A stretch of DNA of 64,000 nucleotides from Eubacteriales bacterium (GCA_045602025.1 JAZSAT010000046.1:8778-72777), one strand, 5' to 3'; positions 4,429 to 59,515 are shown, counted from the stretch's first letter. Translations and numbers: made by a program. The notes: generated by a model from the sequence alone, not told the origin.

Positions 4429-5856
4429 TTATTCCTTTCCATTCCAACAATATGTACAAAGTTTTGAAGGATCTACATCAATTGCTTTGATGATTCCTTC
4501 CAATGTTTGAAATTCAAGTGAGGAAAAGTGAAGCTTTTCGCAAATGGTATTTCTTAACTTCTTACCTCTTTCGGTTGCAGAATCGCTGTACTCGTCCAAA
4601 TGCTTGAGACCTTCATCGCCTTCAAGCTCCATAACCGTGCTGCGCGCAATCAGCTCCATTTCGCTTCTTGCAGAAGTAAAGCCAAGGTAAGGACAGTTAA
4701 ACATAATGGGAGGACAGGCGGAACGGATATGGACCGATTTCGCACCGTTTGAATACAAAAACTCAACCGTTTCCTTAAGCTGAGTTCCTCTTACAATAGA
4801 ATCATCAACAAATAAAAGACTTTTTCCCTTGATCAATTCGTGAACAGGGATCTGTTTCATTTTTGCAATTTCATTCCGCTCCTTCTGACTCGCAGGAATG
4901 AAGCTTCTCATCCAGGTAGGTGTATATTTGATAAATGCTCTCGCAAAAGGAATTCCGCTTTCCTGCGCATATCCTATTGCATGAGGGGTACCGGAATCAG
5001 GAACACCGCTGACATAATCAAGCTCGGGAAGTGTCCCATTCTTTTTATCGTTTGCGGCAATCACCTGGCCGTTTTTATACCGCATGACCTCAACATTTAC
5101 CCCTTCATAGGTAGATGTGGGATAGCCGTAATAACTCCAAAGAAAGGAGCAGATTTTCATTTGTTCACCAGGTTTTACCAAACACTTTACTTCATCAGAA
5201 GAAATCTCGACAACTTCACCGGGACCAAGCTCGCGATCACTTTCATATCCAAGTTTCTGATAGGCAAAGGACTCAACGGAAACACAGTATCCAAATTCAT
5301 TTTTCCCTATCAAAACAGGAAGTCTTCCTAAAAGGTCACGCGCAGCAATCAAATTACCGTCTTCCTTTAAAAGAAGAATGGTACAAGAACCTTTTATATT
5401 TTCCTGAACAAACCGAATTCCTTTTTCAAAGCTATCCTTTTGACAGATCAGTGAGGCAACAAGCTCAACATGATTGACATTGCCTCCAGTCATTGCGTCA
5501 AAATGACCGCCGTTGCTTTCATCCAAGTATTCTTCAAGAAGTTCATCTGCATTATTAATTGCGCCAATCAGGCAAACCGCGAAAGTGCCGAGTTTAGAAC
5601 GAATCAAGAGAGGCTGAGGATAAAAATCACTAATACAGCCGATTGCACTGGTTCCGCGCATTTCCTCAAAGATATGTTCGAACTTTGTACGAAACGGTGC
5701 ATTTTTTATGCTTTTGATCTCTCTTTGGAGACCGATCTCTGAGTCAAAGGCAGCAATTCCTGCGCGATGCGTGGCAAGATGCGAATGATAATCAGTACCG
5801 AAAAACACATCGGAAAGAGCGTCGTTTTTGCTCACAACTCCAAAAAAGCCACCCAT
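4429..5856 (-). CDS. purF: amidophosphoribosyltransferase-like protein (PurF family) lacking the N-terminal Cys nucleophile
   Basis: 475 aa. The PRTase motifs are present ([13 protein letters not shown]) and so are the Fe-S cysteines ([19 protein letters not shown]). The N-terminus is MGGFFGVV, not MCG..., and an in-frame stop lies 6 codons upstream of the ATG. Confidence 0.8.
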
Positions 5857-9193: not shown

Positions 9194-9834
9194 TATGCTT
9201 TGCCCTCATTGATCCAGCTCTCATCGGAAGGATTGTTACGGAAAGCGATCAGTTTCTTTACATCCTCCGGTTTAATATAGCCTTCATCGGCAGCAACCTG
9301 AGCAATTACATCAAAATTGGTCAAGGAAACATTTTTTACATTTGCTTCTTCCAAGCGTACAAGGCCTTTTTTCATACCATAGGTGAAAATGCTGACAACG
9401 CCAAGAACCTCGGCACCGGCTTCGCGAAGTACGTTTACAACTTCAATTACACTGCCACCGGTAGAGATCAAATCTTCTACAACAACAACCTTCTGACCCT
9501 TTTCAAGTCTTCCCTCGATCTGGTTCTGTCTGCCGTGATCCTTTGCGCCGGAACGAACATAGCCCATAGGAAGCCCCATAAGATGCCCGGTAATAGCTGC
9601 GTGCGCAATACCTGCAGTAGAAGTACCCATAAGCACTTCAACCTCAGGATAGTGCTTGCGAATCGTTTCAGCAAGACCGTTTTCAACATCATTTCTGACT
9701 TCAACGGAAGTAAGTGTTAAACGGTTATCACAGTAAACAGGACTCTTAATTCCGCTTGCCCAAGTAAAAGGTTCTTCAGGACGGAAGAACACTGCTTTGA
9801 TCTTAAGCAAATCTTTTGCAATTAATTTTTCCAT
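9193..9834 (-). CDS. pyrE: orotate phosphoribosyltransferase
   Basis: 213 aa with PRPP-binding motif [13 protein letters not shown]. In the pyr operon. Confidence 0.9.
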
Positions 9835-9845
9835 TTTTATTCACC

Positions 9846-10544
9846 TCAATCAACAAATTCAGCAACACAGCGATTGTACGCAGCAACAGGATCCGCAGCT
9901 GCAGTAATGGGACGACCGACAACAATATAGTCAGAGCCGATCTTTTTCGCCTCAGCGGGAGTCATTACTCTCTTCTGATCTCCAATATCTCCATCGGCAA
10001 AACGGACACCGGGCGTTACAGTCAAAAAGTCTTTACCGCAGGTATCGTGAACCTTGCCTGCTTCCAAGGGAGAGCAAACAACACCGTCAAGACCTGCATT
10101 TTTTGCATTCTTTGCGTAATGCAAAACAACTTCATCAATAGGCTTTTCAATCAAAAGATCCTTTTCCATGCTTTCCTGATCGGTGGAGGTAAGCTGGGTA
10201 ACCGCAATCAGCAAAGGACGGGTGCCGTCTGCACGAGTAAGACCTTCAATTGCAGCCTCCATCATGCGAACCGTTCCGCTTGCATGAAGATTGCAAAGAT
10301 CTACATCAAGACCGGAAAGAACAGCCATGGATTTTTTTACGGTATTGGGAATATCGTGGGACTTCAGATCCAAAAAGATCTTATGTCCTCTTCTTTTGAT
10401 CTCTCTTACAATTTCAGGTCCTTCAGCGTAAAAAAGCTCCATACCGATTTTTACAAAAGGCTTTTTACCCGTAAATTGATCCAAAAATTGAAAAACATCT
10501 TTTGCACTTGCAAAATCACAAGCAATAATTACATCCTTTCCCAT
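9846..10544 (-). CDS. pyrF: orotidine 5'-phosphate decarboxylase
   Basis: 232 aa with KIGMELF...FLDLKSHDIPNT motifs. Confidence 0.9.
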   Translation of the reverse strand: MGKDVIIACDFASAKDVFQFLDQFTGKKPFVKIGMELFYAEGPEIVREIKRRGHKIFLDLKSHDIPNTVKKSMAVLSGLDVDLCNLHASGTVRMMEAAIEGLTRADGTRPLLIAVTQLTSTDQESMEKDLLIEKPIDEVVLHYAKNAKNAGLDGVVCSPLEAGKVHDTCGKDFLTVTPGVRFADGDIGDQKRVMTPAEAKKIGSDYIVVGRPITAAADPVAAYNRCVAEFVD

Positions 10545-11455
10545 TACTGGACACCTCCTATAATTTCACTCAAAGATTCAATTCCATATTTTTCCATAAC
10601 GGATGGCAGATTCAAAATAATATCTCTGCAAGCAAATGGATCAACAAGGTTAGCAGCAACAACTTGAACAGCAGTCGCCCCTGCAAGCATCATTTCAATC
10701 ACAACCTCTGCAGAGGAAACACCGCCCATACCTACTACAGGTACAGAAACAGCATTTGCAACCTGATAAACCATACGAACTGCTACAGGAAAAATAGCAC
10801 TACCGGAAAAACCGCCCATTTTATTTGCAATTAGAGGCTTTCTGTTTTTCAGGTTGATACGCATTCCAAGCAGTGTATTGATCAAGCTGATACCGTCAGC
10901 ACCTGCATTTTCACAAGCCGATGCAATAGAAACGATATCGGTTACATTTGGTGAAAGCTTGATAATGATCGGCTTTTTCGTAACCTTCTTTACTTCCCTG
11001 GTAACTTCAGCCGCCGCCTCGGGACTTGTACCGAAGCTCATGCCGCCGCCGTGAACATTGGGACAGCTGACATTTACTTCGATCCAACCAACCTGATCAC
11101 AAGCATCAATTTTTTGGCAAGTGTAAACATAATCTTCCACAGAAAAACCGCTTACATTCGCCATTACCTTTTTATCAAAACATTTTTTTAATTTTGGAAG
11201 CTCTTCAGAAATTACCTTCTCAACGCCGGGATTCTGAAGACCGACCGCATTGATCATACCGGAAGAGCATTCTGCGATGCGCGGAGTAGGATTGCCGAAG
11301 CGAGGATCCTTGGTCGTACCTTTAAAAGAAAAGGTTCCCAGAATATTGATATCATAAAGTTCAGCAAATTCATAGCCGAATCCAAAGGTTCCGCTGGCAG
11401 GAATCACGGGATTGTCAAGCTTGATCCCACAGAGATCAACATTCATTTTTCCCAT
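10544..11455 (-). CDS. pyrD: dihydroorotate dehydrogenase 1B, catalytic subunit
   Basis: 303 aa with NPVIPASGTFGFG...NVSCPN motifs. Directly follows pyrK. Confidence 0.9.
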   Translation of the reverse strand: MGKMNVDLCGIKLDNPVIPASGTFGFGYEFAELYDINILGTFSFKGTTKDPRFGNPTPRIAECSSGMINAVGLQNPGVEKVISEELPKLKKCFDKKVMANVSGFSVEDYVYTCQKIDACDQVGWIEVNVSCPNVHGGGMSFGTSPEAAAEVTREVKKVTKKPIIIKLSPNVTDIVSIASACENAGADGISLINTLLGMRINLKNRKPLIANKMGGFSGSAIFPVAVRMVYQVANAVSVPVVGMGGVSSAEVVIEMMLAGATAVQVVAANLVDPFACRDIILNLPSVMEKYGIESLSEIIGGVQ

Positions 11456-12177
11456 AAAATTTCCTCCTTCATCAGAACAGGACCTTCCTTACAGATTCGC
11501 TTGTTTCCTGTAACGGTTTTGCAAGAACAGCCCATACAAGCTCCAAAGCCACAGCCCATTCTTTCTTCAAAGCTAAGCTGACCGGAAGTTTGGGAAGTAG
11601 AAAAAATTGCCTTCAGCATCGGTTCCGGACCGCAGGTATAAAAATGTGTATAAGAAAGATCTTTCATAACATCGGTAACAAAACCCTTGATCCCATACGA
11701 GCCGTCAACCGTGGTAACATACACATTGCAGCCAATGTTCTTGAATTCCTGTTCATAAAAGATCTCGCTTTTTGTATTAAAGCCAAGGATAACAGAAACC
11801 TGTTTTCCCTCGGAGATCAATTTTTTTGCCAATAAAAACATAGGCGGTACACCCACGCCGCCTCCGAGAAGGAGAGGCTTCTCGCCGGAAAGCATTGTAT
11901 CATAGCCGTTTCCAAGCCCTGTAAGAACATCCAGTGTTCCCTCTTTCATGCGGCTCATTTGCTCCGTTCCGGCTCCTACGACCTTGTAAATGATCGTAAC
12001 CGATGTTTCATCCAGATCACAGACGGAAATAGGGCGACGGAGGAAATGTCCGTCAAGCTTGATATTAATAAACTGGCCGGGAAATGTGATATCAGAAACA
12101 TCACCAACAAGGCGCATCTGATACACACTTTCCGTCAAAGGAATATTTTGCGCAATGGTAAAAAGTCCTTGTTTCAT
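11443..12177 (-). CDS. pyrK: dihydroorotate dehydrogenase electron transfer subunit
   Basis: 244 aa. FAD/NAD-binding fold and a C-terminal 2Fe-2S motif CGFGACMGCSC. Confidence 0.88.
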   Translation of the reverse strand: MKQGLFTIAQNIPLTESVYQMRLVGDVSDITFPGQFINIKLDGHFLRRPISVCDLDETSVTIIYKVVGAGTEQMSRMKEGTLDVLTGLGNGYDTMLSGEKPLLLGGGVGVPPMFLLAKKLISEGKQVSVILGFNTKSEIFYEQEFKNIGCNVYVTTVDGSYGIKGFVTDVMKDLSYTHFYTCGPEPMLKAIFSTSQTSGQLSFEERMGCGFGACMGCSCKTVTGNKRICKEGPVLMKEEILWEK

Positions 12178-28950: not shown

Positions 28951-30837
28951 TTACCTCTCATTCATATTCAGATAAATCAAAAGAACCGTGATATCAGCAG
29001 GCGAAACACCTGAGATTCTTGAAGCTCTGCCGATATTTTCAGGTCTGATCTGAGAAAGCTTTTGACGAGCTTCCAGCCTCAATCCACCGATTTTATGATA
29101 ATCAATATCGGAGGGCAATTCCTTGGATTCCAACTTCCAGAACTGTTCTGCTTGCATTTTTTGACGCTTGATATAGCCTGCATATTTGATTTCAATTTCA
29201 GCTTTTCTGAAAACATCCTCTGAAAAATCAGGTCTCTTTTCATCAATCAATTTTAAATTCTCATATGTAATGCCGGGTCTTCGAAGCAAATCGCCGAGCT
29301 TTACCCCTACACTGACAGGCTGGCTGTCGAGAGAGGTTAAAAGATCATTGAGTTTTTGAGAAGGAGAAAAGAAAGTCTTCTCCGCTCTTTCGATCTCAGA
29401 ATCAATTTCTTCGAACTCTTTTTTCTTTAATAGATATTTTTCTTCGCTGATAAGACCGAATTTTCTGCCATATTCAATTAGGCGACGGTCCGCATTATCC
29501 TGTCTTAAAAGAAGCCTATATTCGCAGCGACTGGTCATCATTCGATACGGCTCATTGGTTCCCTTGGTAACAAGGTCATCGATCAACGTGCCGATGTAAC
29601 TGGATTCCCGTGTCAGAATAAAAGGATCTTCTCCAAGACAGCGAAGCGCAGCATTAATGCCAGCAATAAGCCCCTGACAGGCAGCCTCCTCATAGCCGCT
29701 GGTACCGTTGAACTGTCCCGCACCGAAAAGGCCGGGGTGCTCCTTAAATTCAAGTGTTTGCTTCAATTGAGTTGGATCAATACAATCATATTCGATTGCA
29801 TAAGCCGTTCTCATTACCTCGGCATTTTCAAGTCCTCGGATAGAACGGATCACCTCATTTTGAACATCCTCAGGCAAAGAGGAAGACAATCCCTGTACAT
29901 AGATTTCCTTGGTATCCTTCCCCATTGGCTCTAAAAACAGCTGATGTCTTTCTTTGTCGGGAAAGCGCATCACCTTGTCTTCAATACTCGGGCAATATCT
30001 TGGGCCTGTGCTTTTGATCTGACCGGAATAAAGGGGCGATCTGTCAATATTCTTCCGAATAATGTCGTGTGTTTTTTCATTGGTGTATACGACATAGCAC
30101 TTTTTCTGATTCATTTCAGAAAAAGCCACCTTATCCGTATCAAAAGAAAAACAGACAGGATCCGCATCTCCCTCCTGAATCTCACAAAGGTCATAATCAA
30201 TACTATCCGCGTGAATTCTGGCAGGCGTACCTGTTTTAAATCTGCGGAAAGAAATCCCCATTTTTTCAAGAGAAGAGGTAAGAAAATCTGCAGGATAAAA
30301 ATTATCAGGTCCCGCAGCGTAACTGATAGCACCTACAACAATATTAGATTTTAAATAGGTACCTGCACAAATAACAACGCTCTTGCAGCGATAAGAGGCT
30401 CCGAAACGCGTAATAACACAGTATTCCTCGTCATGCTTTTGGACTTCGCAAATTTCTGCTTGGATCAAACGAAGATTCTCAGTATTCTCACAGCAGATCT
30501 TCATATAGTGATGATAAGCTCTTCTGTCAGATTGCTGGCGGAGCGAATGAACAGCAGGCCCTTTGCCCAAATTCAGCATTCGGCTTTGTAGGGCATTGGC
30601 ATCTGCGGCTTTTCCCATTTCACCGCCCAAAGCATCGATCTCAAATACAAGATGACCCTTGCCGGTGCCGCCAATAGAAGGGTTACAAGGCATATTGCCC
30701 ACTGCTTCCAAAGACAGTGTAAACAAATTGGTCTTAACCCCCATTCTTGCAGCAGCAAGAGCTGCTTCAAGGCCTGCATGACCGGCTCCGATCACAGCAA
30801 CATCGCAAAAGCCGGCGTCAAAAATCTTATGTTCCAA
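28951..30837 (-). CDS. mnmG: tRNA uridine 5-carboxymethylaminomethyl modification enzyme MnmG (GidA)
   Basis: 628 aa. FAD motif DVAVIGAGHAGLEAALAAARMG, and the family motif TGPRYCPSIEDK. Confidence 0.93.
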   Translation of the reverse strand: MEHKIFDAGFCDVAVIGAGHAGLEAALAAARMGVKTNLFTLSLEAVGNMPCNPSIGGTGKGHLVFEIDALGGEMGKAADANALQSRMLNLGKGPAVHSLRQQSDRRAYHHYMKICCENTENLRLIQAEICEVQKHDEEYCVITRFGASYRCKSVVICAGTYLKSNIVVGAISYAAGPDNFYPADFLTSSLEKMGISFRRFKTGTPARIHADSIDYDLCEIQEGDADPVCFSFDTDKVAFSEMNQKKCYVVYTNEKTHDIIRKNIDRSPLYSGQIKSTGPRYCPSIEDKVMRFPDKERHQLFLEPMGKDTKEIYVQGLSSSLPEDVQNEVIRSIRGLENAEVMRTAYAIEYDCIDPTQLKQTLEFKEHPGLFGAGQFNGTSGYEEAACQGLIAGINAALRCLGEDPFILTRESSYIGTLIDDLVTKGTNEPYRMMTSRCEYRLLLRQDNADRRLIEYGRKFGLISEEKYLLKKKEFEEIDSEIERAEKTFFSPSQKLNDLLTSLDSQPVSVGVKLGDLLRRPGITYENLKLIDEKRPDFSEDVFRKAEIEIKYAGYIKRQKMQAEQFWKLESKELPSDIDYHKIGGLRLEARQKLSQIRPENIGRASRISGVSPADITVLLIYLNMNER

Positions 30838-30847
30838 AATTTACTCC

Positions 30848-32230
30848 TTATTTTCCAACACAAAACCGTGAGAAAACCTGATCTAAAATCATGTCACCTG
30901 CGCTTTTTCCATCGACCTCAAGTAAGGCAGACAGGGCTTCCTCTAAAGTCAGAGAAGCAACATCTTTTTCTCCGCTAGAGATCTGTTTGAAGGCAAGTTC
31001 CAAAAGCTCCTTCACCTTCTGCACTTCCGCTTTTTGACGCGCATTGATCAGAATACTTCCTTCTCGAAGCGCATCCGCATCCGTTATAAACATCTTTTCT
31101 ACTGCACCAAGAATATTTGGAACAGATTCTTCATTCCGGTAATCCAAATCAAATGTCAGATCGAAATTGGGAATTTGTGATGTATCAAGCTTTTGGTCCA
31201 AATCGCTTTTTGTAAAGACGCTGACAATCTTCTTATCCGAATTCTCTTTCAACTGAGAAAGAATAATCACATCATCCGAATCAAAAGGTCTCGAGAGATC
31301 AAAGAGCGCAAAAATCAGCTCTGCTTCCTCTAAAACACTAAGTGCCTTCTCGATGCCGATTTCTTCTACCTTATCAGAAGCATCGGAACGTACTCCTGCT
31401 GTATCGGCAAGATTTAAGAGAATGTCGCCTGCCTTTACCGGGTACTCGATCACATCCCTAGTCGTACCGGGAATCTCTGTTACAATTGCCTTGTTCTCAC
31501 CAAGAAGTGCATTGAAAAATGTACTTTTCCCAACATTTGGTTTTCCTACAATTACAGAAGGAATACCGGCGTTGATCGCTCTACCCATCTTGAATGTAAC
31601 AAGCAAGCGATCACAAGAATTAATACATTCTTGAATCAAAGAAAGCATTTCTCCATCCGACAAGGCCTGTAGATCCTCTTCCGGATAGTCAAGATACGCC
31701 CAAAGAGAAGAAGATACGGAGAGAATCTGTTCTGATAACGCACTGATTTTCTCAGACAATTTACCACGGCTCGTCTTAGAAGAAAGCTTTACAGCAGCTT
31801 CTGTTTTCGCATCCAAGAGATCGGCAATTCCTTCTGCTGAAGTCAGCGAAAGCTTTCCGTTCAAAAAAGCTCTTCTCGAAAACTCACCGGCTTTTGCAGG
31901 AACAGCACCTGCTGATATTACGGAAGAAAGCACCATTGCTGTAACGATCTCGCCCCCATGGCAAGCAATTTCAGCAACATTCTCTCCCGTAAAGGAATTG
32001 GGCGCAGAAAACAATGTCAAAAGACCGTCATCAATAATCTCTTTTCCATCAAAAGAGATTATATCACCGTAAGTTTGAAAACGGCTTTTGATCTCGCTGA
32101 ATTTTTTTGAACTCCGGGGACAAAAAACCTTTTCTGCAACAGAAAAAGCTTCCGGACCTGAAATACGGATCAGCGAAACGCCTCCCTTTCCTTTTGGAGT
32201 TGAAATCGCTGCAATCGTAGAAAAAATCAT
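30848..32230 (-). CDS. mnmE: tRNA modification GTPase MnmE (TrmE)
   Basis: 460 aa. G1 motif GKPNVGKST, G3 motif DTAG, and the C-terminal CVGK. Confidence 0.93.
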   Translation of the reverse strand: MIFSTIAAISTPKGKGGVSLIRISGPEAFSVAEKVFCPRSSKKFSEIKSRFQTYGDIISFDGKEIIDDGLLTLFSAPNSFTGENVAEIACHGGEIVTAMVLSSVISAGAVPAKAGEFSRRAFLNGKLSLTSAEGIADLLDAKTEAAVKLSSKTSRGKLSEKISALSEQILSVSSSLWAYLDYPEEDLQALSDGEMLSLIQECINSCDRLLVTFKMGRAINAGIPSVIVGKPNVGKSTFFNALLGENKAIVTEIPGTTRDVIEYPVKAGDILLNLADTAGVRSDASDKVEEIGIEKALSVLEEAELIFALFDLSRPFDSDDVIILSQLKENSDKKIVSVFTKSDLDQKLDTSQIPNFDLTFDLDYRNEESVPNILGAVEKMFITDADALREGSILINARQKAEVQKVKELLELAFKQISSGEKDVASLTLEEALSALLEVDGKSAGDMILDQVFSRFCVGK

Positions 32231-48973: not shown

Positions 48974-49285
48974 TTTATCACCTCTGAAAGAATTCGTTTG
49001 CTTGCTCATTATATAACAAAGTTCTGCTTTTTTCAATAAAAAATATAAAATCTTAAACACCCGTCAAACGAGTGACTCGCAAAAGGGCAATCAAACTGTG
49101 TGTTCGAACCCCTGCATATTTTTAATGAATTATTTTCTTGCGGGAAATATGAAAACCTCCTGACGGATTATGAAATTTTCTACTATCGCAGAAAGCGAAA
49201 TAAAACTCGTTCCTTTGTATGCCGTAAGCATATTTTACATTTGCGAAGCAATATTTCTCCCATCAGCAAGGTAGATTTCATTGAA

Positions 49286-49315
49286 AAAAGACCTTGTCAA
49301 AAGACAAGGTCTTTT
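49286..49315 (-). terminator. intrinsic terminator
   Basis: AAAAGACCTTGTC-AAAA-GACAAGGTCTTTT, downstream of the 70-aa ORF. Confidence 0.7.
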
Positions 49316-49359
49316 CGCTGCTGTTCCGAACCATTTAGATGCCACTTTAAAAAGCAAGA

Positions 49360-49834: not shown

Positions 49835-49919
49835 TGGTGGGGGAAGGTGGATTCGGACCACCGAAGTCAGTGACAACAGATTTACAGTCTGCCCCCTTTG
49901 GCCGCTCGGGAATTCCCCC
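49835..49919 (-). tRNA. tRNA-Tyr (anticodon GUA)
   Basis: The reverse complement is GGGGGAATTCCCGAGCGGCCAAAGGGGGCAGACTGTAAATCTGT...GGTGGTCCGAATCCACCTTCCCCCACCA. It forms a cloverleaf with a long variable arm. Confidence 0.9.
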
Positions 49920-49941
49920 ATATCGTATTTTATTGTGTCGC

Positions 49942-50017
49942 TGGAGCTGGTGAAGGGACTTGAACCCCCAACCTGCTGATTACAAATCAGCTGCTCTGCC
50001 AATTGAGCTACACCAGC
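49942..50017 (-). tRNA. tRNA-Thr (anticodon UGU)
   Basis: The reverse complement is GCTGGTGTAGCTCAATTGGCAGAGCAGCTGATTTGTAATCAGCAGGTTGGGGGTTCAAGTCCCTTCACCAGCTCCA. Confidence 0.9.
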
Positions 50018-50132: not shown

Positions 50133-50162
50133 TTGAAATACTCACTCTTGCCGTGGTATAAT
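50133..50162 (+). promoter_or_regulatory. promoter of the three-gene TerB/ATPase/helicase operon
   Basis: TTGAAA (50133-50138), 18 nt spacer, extended -10 TGGTATAAT (TATAAT at 50157-50162). Confidence 0.55.
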
Positions 50163-50200
50163 AATATAATACCTAAATTACACGCGGAAAGGAGATCATT

Positions 50201-51793
50201 TTGAAAAAAGACGAATACTGGTCTATTGACCGATTACTTCCCAAAATTCAATCCTCCTTTAGCGAAAAGCAAAATAAAAATGTACCTTTATCTTCTTTAG
50301 AATCCAAGGAGTCTGACAAGCATTACGAAAAGATCGTTTGCCCCAAAAACTCGCGCGTGATCCGCCATTATAAATTGACAAAGCCCGAATTTCCCAAAAA
50401 CAACTTGATTCTTGAAGTTCCAACGGAAGAAAAAAAGACCTTTGTCCCCTGCTCGCTTTTTTCTCCTACAATGTTATCACTGAACAAAGAGCAGAGAGCT
50501 TACTTTTTCTTTTTCTGCTCTGCAGTTGAAAAGAGACACAAGGTAGAAACAAGCTTTTCCTATATTGTTCTTTATCTCTGCAGAATGTTAAGAAAAATCG
50601 AGCTTTTAAGAAGCATCCCCGATGATATTTTTTGGCTTTGGGAAAATTACCGTCAGGATTTCCCTCTTGCCGACAAGCTTTTTGCCGATACGGTCAGTGA
50701 TTTTTGTTTCTATAAGGGCATCATCATTCCTTTTGAAAAAGTAGGAAGCATTGTATGCAAAAAGGATTTTCTGATCCGACCTTTTCTTCTTGATCCTTAT
50801 ATTTTTGACTATCTCTTTGCCGAGGATCACAAATTAACACCTACAGAGATCAATTTTCTGATTCGCATTCTATCGGGCGACGGTTTTCGGAAAACCAAGG
50901 CTTACCGTGCAAACGCCACCTACGCGATGGCAACGGAAGAAGCAATGAACAAAGCCTTTACAAGAGGGCTTTTTAACAAAAAAAGCTTAAATGAAAGCCT
51001 TTTTTCCATTCAGATCCCCTCTCAGGTTCACACAATAAGAAAGCTTTTTTCCGCTTTGCCCGCTGCTGAAGCACCTCAGATCGAGATCAATTTATGCTAT
51101 CTGCCTCTCCTTCACGACAACAACATTCACGACCGTTGTGATGAGATCCTGAAATACCTCGACAACAGGATCCGCGCCATCTTAAAAATAAAAAATGCAC
51201 TTTCACGCATTCACATCTCTATCGAGCACCGTGTTTTTTTAGAAGAGATACTGAATGAGTTTCAGCATCTTGCGCCGCAAGCGCAAAACGATATCACCTT
51301 CGAAAAGGCAACGCCAAGAGCTTCGCTTCCGAAAAGGAAGATCGAAGTGGATACCGAGAAAGCAGCTCAAATTGAAGAGGATTCCTGGCTTTTAACGCAA
51401 AAGCTTACAGAATCTTATTCAGAGGAAGGGATAGAAAGCATCACCATCGGAGGTGATGCAGAACCCGACTTTGACGAAGTTATTGAAAAAAATCTTTCCA
51501 AGAGCATTCGATCGGGCACAGATCCCGAAAGCGGTGAATTTTGGGAGTTTGCCGCCCTTCTTTCTCCGGAAGAGGATTTGTTTATGTCTTATTCCGTAAA
51601 CCTTGGAAAGGACAGAGCAAGAGAATACGCCCTTTCCATCGGTATGTTTTACGAAGGTATGGTGAGCACCTGTAATGAAAAAGCTCTGGATGCCACAGGA
51701 GATAATGTAATGACTCCCTTTGGGGAAATTTTCCCCGAATATTTATCCGAATTAAAGGAAGTTTTCCCCGAAATGAAAGGAGAAACAAAATGA
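50201..51793 (+). CDS. TerB-N / TerB-C domain protein (Shango SngA-like)
   Basis: 530 aa, TTG start 6 nt after AAGGAG. FVPCSLFSPTMLSLNKEQRAYFFFF...SFSYIVLYLCRML fits the TerB-N pattern as I recall it (FVP..Y.PTY..M...Q..Y.YWR....SYIF.Y.YE). The C-terminus (EFWEFAALLSPEE...CNEKALDATGDNVM) is TerB-C-like. No TM segment. Confidence 0.6.
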   Translation: MKKDEYWSIDRLLPKIQSSFSEKQNKNVPLSSLESKESDKHYEKIVCPKNSRVIRHYKLTKPEFPKNNLILEVPTEEKKTFVPCSLFSPTMLSLNKEQRAYFFFFCSAVEKRHKVETSFSYIVLYLCRMLRKIELLRSIPDDIFWLWENYRQDFPLADKLFADTVSDFCFYKGIIIPFEKVGSIVCKKDFLIRPFLLDPYIFDYLFAEDHKLTPTEINFLIRILSGDGFRKTKAYRANATYAMATEEAMNKAFTRGLFNKKSLNESLFSIQIPSQVHTIRKLFSALPAAEAPQIEINLCYLPLLHDNNIHDRCDEILKYLDNRIRAILKIKNALSRIHISIEHRVFLEEILNEFQHLAPQAQNDITFEKATPRASLPKRKIEVDTEKAAQIEEDSWLLTQKLTESYSEEGIESITIGGDAEPDFDEVIEKNLSKSIRSGTDPESGEFWEFAALLSPEEDLFMSYSVNLGKDRAREYALSIGMFYEGMVSTCNEKALDATGDNVMTPFGEIFPEYLSELKEVFPEMKGETK

Positions 51794-53127
51794 GTGAAGA
51801 TAAAAGAATCAAAATTCCAAAAAGGATTCTCGGCACTCTTCTTAACTCTGCAGGTGCAGGTGTAGTTCCGAGACAAGGCCTTGAATATATTGCTATCGGC
51901 AGAGAAAAAGAGATTGAAGCTTTGATCCGCGATCTGGATAACATCGCTCTTGGCATGGGTGCTTTTCGTTTTCTTGTAGGAAAATACGGTAGCGGTAAAA
52001 GCTTTTTGATGGGTCTTGTTCGCGCAAACGCCCAGGAAAAAGGTTTTGTGATCGCAGATTCCGACCTTTCTCCCGAAAGAAGATTTCACGGTACCGGTGG
52101 GCAAGGACTTGCCACATTCCGTGAGCTGATCCGCAACCTTTCCACAAAATCATCTCCCGACGGGAATGCTCTTCCTTCCATTCTCGGTGCTTGGTTCTCT
52201 TCTCTTCAGATGAAGGGTATCAGTGAAATGGGCTTTTCTCCCAATTCCGAGGAATTAAACAAGTTTGTGGAAAAAGAAGTTTTTCTTGTTTCCCGCACGC
52301 TTCAGGGAAATGTAAACGGATTTGATTTTGCAAAAGTATTGTATGCATACTTTACCGCTTATGTAGCGGGAGATGATGCACTTTTAGAAGATGCTCTGCG
52401 GTGGCTTAGAGGAGAATTCAGCGGGAAGCTGCAAGCACGAAGCTCCCTTCTTCACATTAATTCTGTAATTGATGATCAAAACTGGTACGATTATTTAAAG
52501 CTCTACGCAGTCTTCTTCCGACAGATCGGCTATAAGGGCTTTGTCCTTCTCATTGACGAATGTGTAAATCTTTATAAGATCCTCAACCGTATTTCAAGAG
52601 AAAACAACTATGAAAAAATCCTTTCCATGTTTAATGACACAATGCAGGGAAAGGCTGAGGGGCTAGGCATTTTTCTGGGTGCAACCCCGCAAATGATCGA
52701 AGACCCAAGGCGCGGCCTCTACAGCTACGAAGCACTAAAAAGCAGACTGATCCCTGGGAAATTTATTCCGGACGGAAAACAGAATCTTCTTTCCCCCTTG
52801 ATCTACCTGCAAAGGCTTTCCGACAATGAGATCTTTGCCCTTTGCAAGCGTCTTCTTCTGCTTCATTCCTCTTATTACAATTACTCTCCCAAGATCTGTG
52901 ATGAGGATATTCTTTCTTTTTTAAATGTTGCTCTTGAAAAAATGGGAGCAAATGAAATGATAACCCCCCGTGAAGTTACCAGAGATTTTCTGAATATTCT
53001 TGATATTCTCTTCACAGATGAAAACACTGTTTTTTCTGACCTTGTCGTAAAAACCACCTTTGAAACCTCGGATATCGAGGAAGAGGATGAGGAGGATTTT
53101 TTCAACTTAAGTGAGATCCGTTTATGA
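51790..53127 (+). CDS. P-loop ATPase, DUF2791 / BrxC-BrxD-like (Shango SngB-like)
   Basis: 445 aa. ATGA overlap with the upstream gene. GVVPRQGLEYIAIGREKEI precedes Walker A GKYGSGKS (51979-52002). Walker B is FVLLIDE. Confidence 0.7.
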   Translation: MSEDKRIKIPKRILGTLLNSAGAGVVPRQGLEYIAIGREKEIEALIRDLDNIALGMGAFRFLVGKYGSGKSFLMGLVRANAQEKGFVIADSDLSPERRFHGTGGQGLATFRELIRNLSTKSSPDGNALPSILGAWFSSLQMKGISEMGFSPNSEELNKFVEKEVFLVSRTLQGNVNGFDFAKVLYAYFTAYVAGDDALLEDALRWLRGEFSGKLQARSSLLHINSVIDDQNWYDYLKLYAVFFRQIGYKGFVLLIDECVNLYKILNRISRENNYEKILSMFNDTMQGKAEGLGIFLGATPQMIEDPRRGLYSYEALKSRLIPGKFIPDGKQNLLSPLIYLQRLSDNEIFALCKRLLLLHSSYYNYSPKICDEDILSFLNVALEKMGANEMITPREVTRDFLNILDILFTDENTVFSDLVVKTTFETSDIEEEDEEDFFNLSEIRL

Positions 53128-55319
53128 CAGAAAATCTGAATGAAAAGGCAAAAAAAGCATTTGCTCTTTTTTCGCCTTTTATCAAAAACTATATTTACCA
53201 AAACGGTTGGAATGAGCTAAGAGAGGTTCAGATCAAAGCAGCGGAAAAGATCTTCTTTACCGAGGATCATCTTCTTATTTCCTCCGAAACGGCCTCAGGA
53301 AAAACAGAGGCTGCCCTCTTTCCCATTCTTTCTATGATGGAAAAGGAATCGTATGAAAACTTTTCCGTACTATACATTTCGCCCTTGAAATCCTTGATCA
53401 ACGATCAATTTTCAAGAATGGAATATCTCTTAAATGAAAGTGGAATGCCTGTTTACCGCTGGCACGGGGATGTTTCCAAAAGCCATAAGGACGCTTTTTT
53501 GAAAAAGCCCGGCGGACTGATCCAGATCACGCCGGAATCCTTGGAAAGCATGCTGATGAACCGCGCCAATGATATTCCTCGTCTTTTCGGAGGTGTGAAA
53601 TTCATCATCATTGATGAGATCCACGCGCTGATGGGATCTGACCGAGGCGGACAGATCCTATGCCAAATGGAACGAATTGAAAAGCTGATCTCCTTTGAAC
53701 CCCGAAGGATCGGTCTTTCCGCTACCGTAGGAAAGCCGGAGGAATGCGGTGCGTGGCTGAAGGGCAAAAGCGAAAGATTATGCAGCATTGTTCAGATCAA
53801 GTCAAAGGATTATTCCTGGAAGCTTGGTCTTGAGCATTTTTACATTACGGAGGAGAGCGAAGAAAAAGGCTTTACTCCCGCCGACACCTTTATATATACC
53901 GCTACAAAGGGTGAAAAATGTATTGTGTTTTCCGACTCACGCGAAGAAACGGAATACATCACTGCAACCTTGCGTCAGCTTGCAAAAAAGAAAGGTGAAG
54001 AAGACCGCTTTTATATTCACCACGGAAACCTTTCCGCCGCGATCCGTGAAGAGGTGGAGGACAGTCTCCGCTCCGATGATAAAAACATCACTGCGTGCGC
54101 AACGGTAACACTTGAGCTTGGAATTGACATAGGCCGATTAAAACGGATCATCAATCAAGGCGCGCCAAACTCTGTTTCCGGATTTTTACAAAGGCTTGGC
54201 AGAAGCGGCCGAAGAGGTGCCCCCCCTGAAATGCTTATGGTATTTCGAGAAGATGAGACCTTGCCCAACGCCCCCATTTATCAATTGATCCCGTGGGAGC
54301 TTCTGCAAGGCATTGCAATTATCGAACTTTACAGAAAAGAAAGATGGATCGAGCCTGCAGGAGATAAAAAAATGCCTGCAAGTCTGATTTTCCATCAAAC
54401 GCTCTCCGTCCTCGCCTCCAAGGGAAGCCTTACTGCTCAAAGATTGGCAAAGGAAGTCCTTTCCCTTTCCCCATTTTCCAATTTCACAAAAGAACAGTAC
54501 AGGGATCTTCTGATCCATATGCTGAAAAACGACTATCTTGAATTAACCGATGAGAAAGAATTGATTGTAGGTCTCAAGGGTGAAAGAATGCTTTCCAGCT
54601 TTAAATTCTACGCGGTCTTTAAAGACAGTGAGGACTTTACCGTTCGTCATGGGTCGGAAGAGATCGGAAGCATTACCTCTACCCCTCCCATCGGTGAGAG
54701 ATTTGCTCTTGCAGGAAGAGTTTGGTCTGTAGAAGAAATCGATGTTTCCAAAAAGCTGATCTATGTTACTCCCGTAGAAGGAAAAATGAAGATTTCCTGG
54801 CCCGGTGACAACGGATTTATTCATACAAAAATTCTTGAAAAAATGCAAGAAGTCCTTTCTTCCGACGAAGCATACCCCTATCTTTTACCAAAGGCTGCAA
54901 AAAGATTGGAGGAAGCACGGCGGCTTGCGAAGAAAACAGGTGCCTGTGAAAAGCCGATCATAAGCCTTGGCGGAAACAGTTTTGTGTTCTTTCCTTGGCT
55001 TGGTACAAAAGCTTTTCAGGCATTAAAAAGACTTCTGCAAAAAGAAGCTTCTCCTCTTGACCTGTTTGATATACAAAGCGGACTCTGCTACTACATTACA
55101 TTTAAATCAGAAAATTCAACTCCGGAATTGATTCTATCAAAGCTGAAAGAAAAGCTATCGGTCGAGAAGCTTAACCCGGAAAGCCTTGTAACCAAAACCG
55201 AGTACCCTTCCTATGACAAATTTGATCCCTGTCTTCCCCACGGACTACTGATCGAATCCTTTGCGAAAAACAGGCTTGATCTTCAGGAGGTCAGGAATAA
55301 ATTTGAAAAGAGGTTATAA
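53124..55319 (+). CDS. Lhr-like DEAD/DEAH-box SF2 helicase (Shango SngC-like)
   Basis: 731 aa. ATGA overlap with the ATPase gene. Motif I ETASGKTEAA, motif II IIDEIH, motif III LSATVG, motif VI QRLGRSGRR. The C-terminal ~300 aa look like a winged-helix / DEAD-associated region. Confidence 0.8.
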   Translation: MTENLNEKAKKAFALFSPFIKNYIYQNGWNELREVQIKAAEKIFFTEDHLLISSETASGKTEAALFPILSMMEKESYENFSVLYISPLKSLINDQFSRMEYLLNESGMPVYRWHGDVSKSHKDAFLKKPGGLIQITPESLESMLMNRANDIPRLFGGVKFIIIDEIHALMGSDRGGQILCQMERIEKLISFEPRRIGLSATVGKPEECGAWLKGKSERLCSIVQIKSKDYSWKLGLEHFYITEESEEKGFTPADTFIYTATKGEKCIVFSDSREETEYITATLRQLAKKKGEEDRFYIHHGNLSAAIREEVEDSLRSDDKNITACATVTLELGIDIGRLKRIINQGAPNSVSGFLQRLGRSGRRGAPPEMLMVFREDETLPNAPIYQLIPWELLQGIAIIELYRKERWIEPAGDKKMPASLIFHQTLSVLASKGSLTAQRLAKEVLSLSPFSNFTKEQYRDLLIHMLKNDYLELTDEKELIVGLKGERMLSSFKFYAVFKDSEDFTVRHGSEEIGSITSTPPIGERFALAGRVWSVEEIDVSKKLIYVTPVEGKMKISWPGDNGFIHTKILEKMQEVLSSDEAYPYLLPKAAKRLEEARRLAKKTGACEKPIISLGGNSFVFFPWLGTKAFQALKRLLQKEASPLDLFDIQSGLCYYITFKSENSTPELILSKLKEKLSVEKLNPESLVTKTEYPSYDKFDPCLPHGLLIESFAKNRLDLQEVRNKFEKRL

Positions 55320-55322
55320 AGA

Positions 55323-55356
55323 AAAAAGCATTTGCCGAAATCGGCAAATGCTTTTT
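55323..55356. terminator. bidirectional intrinsic terminator
   Basis: AAAAAGCATTTGCCG-AAA-TCGGCAAATGCTTTTT. Confidence 0.8.
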
Positions 55357-55357
55357 C

Positions 55358-56035
55358 TTATAGGGTTGTATTTCCGCCGTAGCTGACAGCTCCCGCATCG
55401 ATTACTCCTTCCATTTTTGAAATTTCTTCGATCAGGGAAAGGGTTTCATCGGTAAGCCTTGTTTCAAGAGAAAGCTCTACGGTATCGCCCGAAACAGATT
55501 TTGATCTCACTTGTACCCTTTCAAGAGAGGCAATGGCATCTTCCACTGTATCACCGAAGCCTACGCGATATCGGATCACAAGAAGATACGAATTATTTGT
55601 CCTCTTTTTTGAAAAAAAGTAAAATGCAAGATACAAAATACCAAGACATAAATTTGTAATAAGAGAAATATAAACAAGTCCCGCTCCTGCCATGATACCC
55701 ACGCTGATCGCCCAAAACATAAACACGGTGTCAGTCGGATCCTTAACCGCAGTACGGAAGCGCACAATAGAAAGTGCTCCAACCATACCGAGGGAAAGAG
55801 CAAGATTCGTAGTCACGGTCATAATTACAACACTGGTTACCATAGACAAAAGCAAAAGAGAAAATGTAAAATTTTTATTCAGAGAAACACCTTGGTAAGT
55901 AATACGGTAGACCATAATCACATAAAGTGAGAGAAAAAAAGATACCAAAAGACCCGTGGCAATACGATCGCCTGTCATCGTCGATTGAAATTCATTTTCA
56001 AAGGTGGTACGAAAAAAATCAAAAACAATATTCAT
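55358..56035 (-). CDS. DUF4956-like membrane protein
   Basis: 225 aa. Four TM segments in the N-terminal half and a soluble C-terminal half. Downstream partner of the VTC-domain gene. Confidence 0.55.
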   Translation of the reverse strand: MNIVFDFFRTTFENEFQSTMTGDRIATGLLVSFFLSLYVIMVYRITYQGVSLNKNFTFSLLLLSMVTSVVIMTVTTNLALSLGMVGALSIVRFRTAVKDPTDTVFMFWAISVGIMAGAGLVYISLITNLCLGILYLAFYFFSKKRTNNSYLLVIRYRVGFGDTVEDAIASLERVQVRSKSVSGDTVELSLETRLTDETLSLIEEISKMEGVIDAGAVSYGGNTTL

Positions 56036-56044
56036 ATATTCTCC

Positions 56045-56722
56045 TTAGTACAAAACCTCTCTGCAAAGGCAAAATTTCGAAATGGCGCATGGGATTTTGG
56101 GTATATCATAAAGTAGCTTTGAAAGATACGGCGGAAAATCAGAATCATACTTAATTTCAAGGATTGCTTTTCCACTCTCTATAGCAGGAACGGAGAAAGT
56201 TTTTTCATCAAGCTCATTTCTGAAAGCGGATGCCGAAACCCAGGTGTCGATTGTAATACGAACATTCCCAAAAGGATGCAAAAACGCACTTCGGTAATAG
56301 TCTACAAACAAAAGAGGTCTGAAGCCTTCCGAAAGAATTTTGTTTGAGATCTCTTCTTCCAAGGCACCGCCTGCTGAGAAAACATCCGGCTTTCTTTTAA
56401 TCAAAGCACAAGCCTTCGCAAGCGAAATGGTTTCAAAGGCTTTAAAAGACTTTTTTCCGATCTTTTCTTTTTTTTCGAGGCGGATATAAGAAAGGTCTCT
56501 ATTATAAAAACGAATGCGATATTTTGCGCGCTTTTCAAGCCCGTTTATCTTATCAAAATAAGCGGAGGACAAAGGGTCCTCAAAATAAAGACTTCGGATA
56601 TGATAGGCACCCCTATCGGGAGTGTGGTCATCCTTTCTCAAAGCAATGTGAAAGCGGCTATTCAAACGATGTGCATCGGCTGAATTGATATAAAATTTCA
56701 GCTCGTTTCTTGCTCCTATCAT
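56045..56722 (-). CDS. VTC-domain (polyphosphate-polymerase-like / triphosphate tunnel) protein
   Basis: Start at MIGARNELKFYI. It contains YHIRSLYFED and KYRIRFY...IRLEKKEK, alternating basic beta-strands of the CYTH/VTC type. TTGACA-17-TAGAAT promoter at 56754-56782. Confidence 0.6.
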   Translation of the reverse strand: MIGARNELKFYINSADAHRLNSRFHIALRKDDHTPDRGAYHIRSLYFEDPLSSAYFDKINGLEKRAKYRIRFYNRDLSYIRLEKKEKIGKKSFKAFETISLAKACALIKRKPDVFSAGGALEEEISNKILSEGFRPLLFVDYYRSAFLHPFGNVRITIDTWVSASAFRNELDEKTFSVPAIESGKAILEIKYDSDFPPYLSKLLYDIPKIPCAISKFCLCREVLY

Positions 56723-56795
56723 AATCACCGCTTTCTTTTCATATTCTGTAAAAAACATTCTAACAAACACCACCCTGTTTGTCAACAAAGGAGAT

Positions 56796-57308: not shown

Positions 57309-57391
57309 AATATCAATGGCGGAATAAAAGCAAAAACGCATGGCAACAATAAAAACAAACAAAAAGCATAATGCGTTTAGGAGTGAAAAAA

Positions 57392-57736
57392 TTGAATGTA
57401 AAAAGAGGAGATATTTATTATGCAGATCTGAGTCCGGTTATCGGCTCGGAGCAAGGAGGAGTCCGACCCGTTGTTATTGTACAAAATGATGTGGGAAACA
57501 AACACAGTCCGACCGTAATCGCAGCAGCCATTACAAGCAAAACGACAAAAACGAAGCTTCCCACTCACATAGAAGTATACGCCGAACAAAACGGACTTTG
57601 CAAAAACTCGGTCATACTCCTGGAACAAATACGTACAATAGATAAGAAAAGACTCAAAGAAAAAATGGGTCACCTGAAAGACGAAACGATGGCAGAGGTA
57701 AACAAAGCGATCAACATCAGTTTCGGTTTATCCTAA
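57392..57736 (+). CDS. mazF: MazF/PemK/EndoA-family endoribonuclease toxin
   Basis: (L)[35 protein letters not shown]...TVIAAAITS, a canonical MazF. I chose the TTG start at 57392, behind AGGAGTG. No antitoxin ORF is adjacent. Confidence 0.85.
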
Positions 57737-57901: not shown

Positions 57902-59515
57902 ATGACAATTGGTAAAAAAATAACAAAACTTCGCACCGAACACGGTATCTCGCAGGAACAGCTTGCGGAAAAGATTAATGTTTCTCGTCAGTCTGTTTCC
58001 AAGTGGGAAATGGATCAAGCACTTCCTCAGATCGACAAGGTACTTCTTCTGTGTGAGCTTTTTAACATTTCAACCGACACCCTTCTTCATGAAGATGCCC
58101 CTCTCCCCATTCTTGAAGAAAACAAAAAGAATAAATACTTCGGCACCGACGGCTTTCGCGGTGAAGCCAACAAAAACCTTACTTCCATGCACGCATACAA
58201 AGTAGGACGCTTTTTGGGTTGGTACCTATCCTCTTCTCATTCAGGAAGATCTAAAAATGAAAGGCCCAGAATCGTTATCGGAAAAGATACGAGAAGATCC
58301 AGTTATATGCTGGAATACTCCATCGCAGCCGGCATTACTGCCTCCGGTGCCGATGTTTATATGCTCCATGTTACGACTACCCCCAGCGTTTCATATGTAA
58401 CCAGAACAGATAATTTTGATTGCGGTGTTATGATCACCGCCTCCCATAATCCCTACTATGACAACGGTATCAAGGTAATCAACCGCTACGGTGAAAAGCT
58501 TGAGGACAAGGTTACCGCTTTGATTGAAGCTTACCTTGACGGCAACATGAAGGCCCTCGGTCTGAATACACCGGATCTTCCCTTTGCGACCAAAGAACAT
58601 ATTGGCTGTATTGTTGACTATGTAGCCGGCAGAAACCGCTATGTTGCATATTTGATCTCCCTCGCAAGCCACTCCTACAGAAAGCTCAGAATCGGTCTTG
58701 ACTGTGCAAACGGTGCCTCCTGGATGATTGCAAGAAATGTGTTTAATGCGCTGGGTGCGCAAACCTATGTGATCGGTGATGATCCCGATGGACTAAATGT
58801 AAATTTGGACTGCGGCTCCACCCACATGGAAAAGCTTTGCGAGCTTGTGAAGGAAGAGCACCTTGATTTTGGTTTTGCTTTTGACGGCGACTGCGACCGC
58901 TGTATCGCAGTAGATGAAAACGGAAATGTGGTAGACGGCGACAAGATGATGTATATTCTCTCCAAACGCCTGAAAACCAGAGAAATGCTGAATAAAGACA
59001 CCCTTGTGGCAACCGTTATGACAAATAGCGGCTTAATTGCAAGTCTTGACAAGATCGGCGTAAAAATGGAGCAAACTGCTGTAGGTGACCGTTTTGTCTA
59101 TGAATGCATGCAGAAAAACGACTATTCTCTCGGTGGAGAACAGTCAGGTCACATCATCCTCAAAAAATACGCAACCACCGGCGACGGTCTTCTTACCGCT
59201 ATTATGCTTGCAGAAGAAATCTGCGACTCCAAATCTACGCTTTCCAAGCTCTGTGCAGATGTTATTTTGTATCCTCAGCGTACCATCAATGTAAGAGTAA
59301 AAGATAAAAATGCAGTATTATCCGATGAAACGGTTTTGGCTGAAACAAAAAAAGTAGAAAGCCTGATCAACGGAAAAGGGAGAGTACTGCTCCGTCAGAG
59401 CGGTACCGAGCCTGTTGTGCGTGTTATGATCGAGTGTGAGGACAAAGATCTTTGCGTTGCCTACGCTCAGCAAATTGCAGACAAGATTCTCGAGGGAGGA
59501 CACGGCATTGAGTAA
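57902..59515 (+). CDS. glmM: XRE-family HTH domain fused to phosphoglucosamine mutase
   Basis: Residues 1-65 are a Cro/C1-type HTH (KLRTEHGISQEQLAEKINVSRQSVSKWE). From residue ~78 a complete GlmM follows: YFGTDGFRG, ITASHNP, FDGDCDR, GGEQSGH, RQSGTEP. It is a single uninterrupted ORF. Confidence 0.8.
   Translation: MTIGKKITKLRTEHGISQEQLAEKINVSRQSVSKWEMDQALPQIDKVLLLCELFNISTDTLLHEDAPLPILEENKKNKYFGTDGFRGEANKNLTSMHAYKVGRFLGWYLSSSHSGRSKNERPRIVIGKDTRRSSYMLEYSIAAGITASGADVYMLHVTTTPSVSYVTRTDNFDCGVMITASHNPYYDNGIKVINRYGEKLEDKVTALIEAYLDGNMKALGLNTPDLPFATKEHIGCIVDYVAGRNRYVAYLISLASHSYRKLRIGLDCANGASWMIARNVFNALGAQTYVIGDDPDGLNVNLDCGSTHMEKLCELVKEEHLDFGFAFDGDCDRCIAVDENGNVVDGDKMMYILSKRLKTREMLNKDTLVATVMTNSGLIASLDKIGVKMEQTAVGDRFVYECMQKNDYSLGGEQSGHIILKKYATTGDGLLTAIMLAEEICDSKSTLSKLCADVILYPQRTINVRVKDKNAVLSDETVLAETKKVESLINGKGRVLLRQSGTEPVVRVMIECEDKDLCVAYAQQIADKILEGGHGIE

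Follow-up and report, generated by a model that had tools for sequence, protein, structure and literature searches.

A predicted Shango-type operon kept at one tRNA-adjacent site in a clade of Clostridia

Why would a bacterial lineage keep what looks like a set of phage defence genes at one chromosomal position, as if they belonged to the core genome? The question is raised by a 64,000-nt stretch of DNA from Eubacteriales bacterium (GCA_045602025.1 JAZSAT010000046.1:8778-72777), hereafter the window, in which three co-oriented open reading frames (ORFs) on the + strand (50201-55319), in the order sngA-sngB-sngC, are predicted to form a Shango-type (SngABC) operon. Shango has been validated in phage defence, and to our knowledge no trigger, target or effector of it has been described. 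We have analysed the three predicted proteins with profile and structure searches, and compared the window with related loci and contigs, for which L-numbers (L001 etc.) serve as labels. We consider it likely that the operon encodes an intact, expressed Shango complex surveying nucleic acids, which was acquired once and then vertically kept as a near-core immune locus.

Identity of the three proteins

All three proteins had their best PADLOC-DB matches in the Sng profiles, over nearly their full length (SngA, 2.1e-18, profile positions 74-526 of 528; SngB, 1.1e-160, 533.5 bits; SngC, 1.9e-236, 785 bits). BrxD (2e-41, 141 bits) and BrxHI (2.1e-135, 451 bits) were clear seconds for SngB and SngC, respectively, and no NCBIfam model was passed by any of the three. 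Everything by which Shango can be recognised in sequence was found, i.e. matches to SngA, SngB and SngC in an adjacent and co-oriented A-B-C operon. Patchy distribution in defence islands or mobile elements, a typical albeit non-defining trait, was not seen at the locus. Judged by these profile matches the trio is a Shango-type operon and an already known kind of system, as proposed in a preliminary description of the window, and would be picked up unaided by the usual defence-finding programs.

The secondary matches are strong, and the Pfam family of SngB is BrxC_BrxD. Both would fit a remnant or sub-module of BREX, with SngB and SngC as BrxD and BrxHI, and with the core genes of the type 2 BREX/Pgl system lost or placed elsewhere. 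We regard this origin as very improbable, as the Sng profiles score higher for both proteins, SngB reached only 143.9 bits with the NCBIfam BrxD equivalog (cut-off 350), and the third gene encodes a TerB_N/TerB_C protein, which defines Shango rather than BREX. Genes for PglX, PglZ, BrxC/PglY and PglW were not found among the checked neighbours in the window or in the syntenic loci. Membership in BREX was rejected on the unseen core genes and the failed BrxD model.

SngB matched Pfam BrxC_BrxD (DUF2791) over its full length (1.3e-140), and is predicted to be a P-loop ATPase of this family. The Walker A motif GKYGSGKS occupies residues 64-71 (with K70) and the Walker B motif VLLIDE starts at residue 252 (D256/E257); both the family and the motifs that had been named for gene 2 (GKYGSGKS, LLIDE, K70) were thus recovered. 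The Walker motifs and the helicase motifs of SngC are intact in 8 lineages. A PDB sequence search with SngB returned no relatives.

SngC matched Pfam DEAD (4.4e-27) and Helicase_C (1.2e-18), and the superfamily 2 (SF2) motifs I (ASGKT, residues 57-61, with K60), II (DEIH, 164), III (SAT, 199) and VI (QRLGRSGR, 356) lie where they had been read before. The AlphaFold2 (AF2) model, with a predicted local distance difference test score (pLDDT) of 87 and a predicted template modelling score (pTM) of 0.85, had its best Foldseek match in the Mycobacterium smegmatis Lhr core (5v9x, E 2.3e-27), with a template modelling (TM) score of 0.72 over the whole length, which bears out the earlier label of an Lhr-like helicase. 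The second structural match was MrfA (6znp), mainly over the helicase core (TM score 0.55-0.57). As modelled, SngC would be an SF2 helicase with the four-domain Lhr-core architecture, i.e. RecA1, RecA2, winged helix (WH) and domain 4.

Since the superposition on the Lhr core covers the full length, the C-terminal third of SngC is not a hidden nuclease. A hidden effector or nuclease in residues 540-731 was ruled out, as this stretch consists of the Lhr WH and domain 4, and Pfam finds none there. Pfam and Foldseek searches of the three proteins gave no nuclease, methylase or other effector domain, in line with the preliminary description, in which no nuclease, methylase or obvious toxic effector had been noted. 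Two repair-type assignments were also rejected: ligase-associated Lhr (TIGR04121; 196.6 bits, cut-off 850), with no ligase or phosphoesterase (MPE) gene nearby, and the MrfAB repair system, with no DUF1998 match, no exonuclease (MrfB-like) gene in the operon and the weaker MrfA fold match.

SngA is less easily recognised. Its match to Pfam TerB_C was just above the gathering cut-off (27.8 bits, cut-off 26.3), and Pfam TerB_N had no match in the window SngA at E <= 0.1. Of the two regions claimed earlier for gene 1, TerB-C was therefore confirmed in the window copy itself, whereas TerB-N was recovered only through orthologs and profiles. Among the hidden Markov model matches that had been proposed as a check, those to BrxC_BrxD, DEAD, Helicase_C and TerB_C were significant, and that to TerB_N was sub-threshold in the window copy. 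The L001 ortholog (66% identical SngA) passes TerB_N with 28.4 bits (cut-off 25), and when 33 SngA members of the clade were scanned singly, TerB_C was found in 31 and TerB_N in 13. An exhaustive search with a clade-only SngA profile retrieved 1,229 representative proteins, mostly of 520-640 aa and aligned over ~75-520; ten distant matches were sampled, nine with TerB_N and eight with TerB_C. Together, the domain matches in orthologs and the results of the clade-profile search point to SngA as a bona fide, yet strongly divergent, member of the TerB_N + TerB_C family. Across the clade SngA is the fastest-evolving component, with 39-66% identity versus 70-88% for SngB.

The AF2 model of SngA (mean pLDDT 80.7) is confident over residues ~40-360 and 445-525. 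Foldseek found no analogue of it among solved structures (all matches E > 1), a PDB sequence search gave no relatives, and we know of no solved structure of a TerB_N or TerB_C domain. The best-conserved stretch of SngA, residues ~301-360 (mean column conservation 0.73-0.80 versus 0.36-0.69 elsewhere), is modelled as a helical hairpin (H307-327, H341-357) that separates the TerB_N-like from the TerB_C region, and is a candidate surface for contacts to SngB or SngC.

For the part that TerB-type proteins play in defence, the literature up to 2025 offers a single idea, surveillance of the membrane. Applied to the trio, SngA would sense membrane perturbation during phage entry by TerB-like amphitropic binding, and the ATPase and helicase would arrest the host, for instance by ATP depletion or genome unwinding, in an abortive infection and not by action on phage nucleic acid. 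This published speculation and the lack of an effector domain in the trio speak for such a role. Nonetheless, we find it a rather poor candidate, since SngA has TerB_N/TerB_C only and no match in Pfam to the TerB domain proper (PF05099), no transmembrane or strongly hydrophobic segment was detected in SngA, SngB or SngC (maximum KD19 1.26), and the complete Lhr core of SngC points to a DNA or RNA substrate. SngA is predicted to be soluble. A Ter tellurite-resistance operon was rejected as well, there being no PF05099 match and no Ter genes (TerC, TerD, TerZ) nearby.

Inheritance at a fixed chromosomal site

Close relatives of SngA make up only ~47 clusters, the few with source labels being Clostridia metagenome-assembled genomes (MAGs); the labels of relatives read Clostridia, Eubacteriales or Ruminococcaceae MAGs. 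These labels and the SpoIVA gene within the window agree with the Clostridia-type spore former suggested earlier as host.

The context of the trio was looked up for homologs at 66, 55, 50, 48, 45 and 39% SngA identity. The same synteny was found in nine species-level lineages (the window, L001, L002, L003, L015, L018, L019, L023 and L026), with the order tRNA-Tyr/tRNA-Thr (divergent), sngABC, DUF4956 (convergent), VTC, a hypothetical gene, PemK, in some lineages HTH-GlmM and a hexapeptide transferase, another hypothetical gene, and SpoIVA. The tRNA pair lies directly 5' of sngA in L001, L002, L003, L015, L018, L020, L021, L023 and L026; the L019 contig ends before the tRNA side. Two further DUF4956 contigs, picked because they seemed to have no SngA counterpart, both carry the trio, and the arrangement of one of them recurs in >20 contigs from different samples. 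In a tenth lineage (L020/L021) the trio has been relocated, i.e. the downstream context differs, and the tRNA pair is still directly upstream. There, a tmRNA gene (L020, 18258-18605; L021, 12594-12941) is found ~3 kb 3' of the trio, after two hypothetical genes and a gene for an ECF-type sigma factor.

The trio has diverged together with its neighbours. Across six lineages the identities to the window were 88/80/78/72/74/70% for SngB, 79/72/68/65/56/59% for SngC, 79/72/67/67/68/61% for DUF4956 and 82/75/66/66/67/63% for SpoIVA, so that SngB exceeded SpoIVA in every comparison. The pairwise identity matrices of trio and flanks were correlated (Mantel r = 0.78, p = 0.002), and their neighbour-joining trees were broadly congruent. 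Selection was estimated between the window and its closest genome, GCA_045604665.1 (contigs L014 and L004), from the synonymous divergence (dS) and the ratio of nonsynonymous to synonymous divergence (dN/dS). The values were dS 1.28 and dN/dS 0.067 for sngA, dS 1.10 and dN/dS 0.023 for sngB, and dS 0.87-1.6 and dN/dS 0.015-0.083 for flanking genes of the same genome pair.

Signs of mobility were sought at the locus, and neither a GC anomaly nor flanking direct repeats nor an integrase was found; phage genomes and IMG/VR gave no relatives of the trio. Furthermore, the trio is situated on the 5' (promoter) side of the tRNA genes and not at the 3' end usual for integrases. A mobile origin of the locus, as a tRNA-integrated island, prophage or plasmid, was rejected on account of the missing repeats, integrase, GC anomaly and phage or IMG/VR relatives. 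These comparisons argue that the trio is vertically inherited at one site in the window clade, under housekeeping-like constraint. The preliminary description had called the trio clearly accessory, a view that, within the clade, does not hold against the nine-lineage synteny, the co-divergence with the flanks, the housekeeping-like dS and dN/dS and the lack of mobile signatures. It had also held that universal core-genome conservation would speak for housekeeping; conservation of this kind is largely seen within the clade, but it is not universal, as L006 has no trio at the position.

L006 (DUF4956 62% and PemK 87% identical), which branches basally in the tree of the flanks, has the stretch from PemK through the hypothetical gene and VTC to DUF4956, and the trio was not found within 10 kb; housekeeping genes follow, including that for asparaginyl-tRNA synthetase. 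L005 is probably also without the trio; its contig stops 210 nt after DUF4956. The DUF4956 contig of L004 (GCA_045604665.1) stops 120 nt past the shared terminator, and the trio of this genome is on another contig, L014. The post-terminator sequence of L004 (6940-7095) is not the sngC 3' end and holds a second hairpin, and L014 is 3.9 kb long and ends inside sngC. At the junction of the two, the assembly may be broken, a small insertion may be present, or strains may differ. At >= 58% identity, DUF4956 forms 83 clusters, versus ~45-47 for SngA or SngC. Outside the clade the family is evidently mobile, with relatives of SngB in 696 plasmid records, 542 of them conjugative. With L006 lacking the trio at the position and homologs in this many plasmid records, the defence reading still stands.

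The stability of the locus raises the possibility that the trio has been domesticated and serves chromosomal DNA or RNA maintenance (damage repair, R-loops, replication-transcription conflicts), instead of or beyond defence, in the way of Lhr or MrfA. Lhr and MrfA have been reported as DNA-repair helicases, and they (5v9x and 6znp) are the nearest solved relatives of SngC. Near-core synteny across lineages with just 63-82% SpoIVA identity, the better conservation of SngB than of SpoIVA, dN/dS values indistinguishable from those of GlmM and DUF4956, the conserved, constitutive-looking promoter and the absence of a mobile-element or defence-island context all agree with such a role. On the other hand, Shango profiles beat every other model for all three proteins, the ligase-associated Lhr model failed, and neither a DUF1998 domain nor an MrfB-like partner was found. 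The SngC family groups with defence helicases, clustering with BrxHI, DruE and DpdJ of other defence systems, and homologous trios are common on conjugative plasmids, as is typical of defence cargo. The trio is also dispensable, as follows from its absence at the position in L006 and its relocation in L020/L021, and SngA evolves far faster than its partners, as expected for a phage-facing subunit. Weighing the two sides, we think domestication unlikely, albeit the most credible alternative to an immune locus.

Expression signals and neighbouring genes

The three ORFs are joined by ATGA start/stop overlaps of 4 nt at both gene junctions (51790-51793 and 53124-53127), and the operon has its own promoter and terminator (Table 1). 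The translational coupling, extended -10 promoter and strong terminator noted in the preliminary description were all found in place.

Table 1. Coordinates of the operon, its expression signals and other features of the window.
Feature	Position	Strand	Details
sngA	50201-51793	+	530 aa, TTG start
sngB	51790-53127	+	445 aa
sngC	53124-55319	+	731 aa
Sigma-A-type operon promoter	50133-50162	+	-35 TTGAAA 50133-50138, 18-nt spacer, extended -10 TGgTATAAT 50154-50162
Ribosome-binding site (RBS) AGGAG	50190-50194	+	6 nt 5' of TTG start, read from sequence
Bidirectional intrinsic terminator	55323-55356	.	GCATTTGCCG-AAAT-CGGCAAATGC between A-run and T-run; arms 55323-55338 and 55341-55356
tRNA-Tyr(GTA) + tRNA-Thr(TGT)	49835-50017	-	ARAGORN, Rfam; divergent from operon
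tRNA promoter -35	50069-50064	-	TTGACA
Sub-threshold Rfam matches	49195-49316		RsaE and Gut-1, opposite strands
DUF4956 and VTC gene pair	55358-56740	-	DUF4956 membrane protein and VTC-domain protein
PemK/MazF-type toxin gene	57371-57736	+	
HTH_3-PGM_PMM gene	57902-59515	+	phosphoglucosamine-mutase-type enzyme (PGM_PMM I-IV)
MnmG/GidA	28951-30837	-	~20 kb from trio
460-aa ORF	30848-32230	-	adjacent to MnmG/GidA
475-aa ORF	4429-5856	-	

The promoter scored 11/12 with the TG extension and was the top sigma-70-type site of the region in a promoter scan. The TTG of the -35 element and TGnTATAAT are kept in 11 lineages, although synonymous sites are saturated, and an A/G-GGA block at the RBS is kept in 11/11 aligned upstream regions. 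In most orthologs ATG stands at the position aligned with the TTG start of sngA.

The arms of the terminator (16 nt each) are 100% complementary, and the hairpin folds with -23.3 kcal/mol (z = -7.66; 0/200 shuffles as stable). It is common to sngC on the + strand and the convergent DUF4956 gene on the - strand, and a near-identical hairpin is found 3' of the DUF4956 gene in L004. A consensus terminator scan of the region listed no terminator after sngC; the A and T runs on either side, which lengthen the stem, are the probable reason.

On the other side of the operon, the -35 element of the tRNA promoter lies within the intergenic region common to both units, and the TTTGTCAAG block is conserved. 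The tRNA pair is a conserved linked neighbour of the operon and not a component of it. An Rfam scan of 47-58.5 kb gave only these two tRNAs, plus sub-threshold noise. Among the latter, matches to RsaE (32 bits, gathering 79) and Gut-1 (30.9 bits, gathering 50) in the intergenic sequence upstream of the tRNA pair are probably due to chance.

Downstream of the trio, the DUF4956-VTC pair is possibly polyphosphate-related. The two genes are also adjacent in MAGs of distant Bacilli and Oscillospiraceae (L007-L013), with 42-46% and 33-36% identity. The PemK/MazF-type toxin gene is the best-conserved of the neighbourhood (85-98% identity, dN/dS 0.015). No recognisable antitoxin gene was evident for it; the 170-aa ORF upstream shows little conservation (28-55%) and matched no Pfam family. 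The phosphoglucosamine-mutase-type enzyme that follows carries an N-terminal Xre-type helix-turn-helix domain (HTH_3, residues 9-60). This fusion is kept in L001, L002, L004 and L023, and neither it nor the next gene, for a hexapeptide transferase, is at the same position in L003, L015, L018, L019 and L026.

Farther away, the 460-aa ORF beside MnmG/GidA may be MnmE, and MnmG beside a possible MnmE would suggest an origin-proximal chromosomal region. Other large ORFs of the window are of housekeeping type (CarB, P-type ATPase, ABC-F, IMPDH, GDH, SpoIVA). Amid such well-annotated housekeeping genes, the 475-aa ORF has no Pfam match at E <= 1e-5.

Proposed role and comparison with known systems

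In the role that we consider likely, a single promoter of constitutive appearance would drive all three genes; together with their translational coupling, this suggests that SngA, SngB and SngC assemble in fixed proportions into one complex. This cytoplasmic three-protein complex would survey nucleic acids: the fast-diverging SngA would sense a phage cue or serve as its adaptor, and SngB would be the ATP-dependent loader, licensing factor or switch. Lhr is a 3'-to-5' translocase on DNA and RNA:DNA hybrids. SngC, presumably with the same 3'-to-5' polarity and active on the same substrates, would unwind intermediates of phage replication or recombination, or strip them. The yield of phage would then be lowered without a dedicated nuclease or toxin, and non-destructive interference of this kind is in keeping with a protection as modest as that reported for Shango (10-100-fold). 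The operon would have been acquired once by a gut Clostridia clade, beside the tRNA-Thr/Tyr promoter region, and have been vertically inherited under strong purifying selection ever since, as a fixed near-core immune locus and not a mobile island.

Several points weigh against this role. Phage resistance has been shown only for the homologs of Escherichia coli and Pseudomonas aeruginosa, and is a prediction for the present locus and for any Shango of Firmicutes. Complex formation, a nucleic-acid substrate and sensing by SngA are what we infer from homology and operon structure. SngA has no solved structural analogue, so that its activity cannot be read from structure, and BLASTP of the window SngA against the canonical TerB_N/TerB_C protein of Clostridium estertheticum was not significant (E 0.15); when the clade profile was aligned to the same protein with hhalign, the C-terminal TerB_C motif alone was aligned (E 0.013). 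Defence systems do not typically show such stable synteny and housekeeping-like selection, or stand without another defence gene or a mobile element nearby; these traits suit a cellular (repair-type) role equally well. Finally, 9/11 informative loci and the cluster counts suggest a prevalence of the trio of ~60-90% in the clade, a rough estimate that allows for short contigs.

The one non-routine aspect of the locus is the long vertical retention at a tRNA-adjacent site. Conceivably, although we would not expect it, the trio has been fixed for so long across a family-level clade through recruitment to core nucleic-acid surveillance, or else as an unusually stable, constitutive 'innate' locus, with SngA perhaps recognising an endogenous cue. 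If it is true that stable inheritance reflects a cellular role, the locus would represent a transition from defence to housekeeping, or the reverse.

The picture of the Shango mechanism is left unchanged by the locus. What it offers is a compact and well-delimited Shango of Firmicutes, with a defined promoter, terminator and catalytic residues, and suited to work in Gram-positive hosts. The >10 orthologous operons at one locus, with 39-85% SngA identity, make a useful series for mapping constrained (e.g. the 301-360 hairpin) versus variable surfaces of SngA, for the co-evolution of the SngA-SngB-SngC interfaces, and for the question why a defence system is retained like a core gene.

Compared with known helicases, SngC has the whole four-domain Lhr-core fold of 5v9x. 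In contrast to Lhr and MrfA, to which it is ~19-22% identical, it is without DUF1998 and without the Lhr C-terminal extension, and it is encoded together with SngA and SngB, not with repair partners. The BrxD + BrxHI accessory module, which reportedly belongs to BREX type 2, has an ATPase/helicase pair homologous to SngB and SngC. The pair in the window is instead joined to a TerB_N/TerB_C protein, is without PglX, PglZ and BrxC, and scores far higher with the Sng profiles.

The closest annotated Shango-type trio that we found is on the C. estertheticum plasmid pCF002-344 (NZ_CP086238.1; L027), in a like order (a TerB_N protein of 533 aa, an ATP-binding protein of 443 aa and a DEAD/DEAH helicase of 744 aa). 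SngB is 51-52% and SngC 44% identical to the window proteins, and SngA is without significant BLASTP similarity. In the plasmid SngA, unlike that of the window, TerB_N (85 bits) and TerB_C (59 bits) are clearly recognised. The trio of pCF002-344 has a relaxase gene on one side and IS110 transposase genes on the other. On the same strand, 17 nt 3' of the trio, follows a gene (9596-12142) for an 848-aa UvrA-like double-ABC ATPase with a UvrA DNA-binding domain, which may be a fourth, associated gene of the plasmid version.

The Shango systems of E. coli and P. aeruginosa PA14 (Millman et al. 2022; Johnson et al. 2023), with a protection of ~10-fold in the former and 10-100-fold in the latter, have the same three components in the same order as the window, and likewise no recognisable effector. 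The operon described here differs from them in its host, an uncultured gut Clostridia spore former, and in its diverged SngA, in which TerB_N falls below the Pfam threshold. It differs also in its setting. In P. aeruginosa, the variable hotspot that holds Shango can hold any of many other systems in its place, whereas the trio of the window clade is found at one site in most lineages examined, co-diverging with its neighbours.

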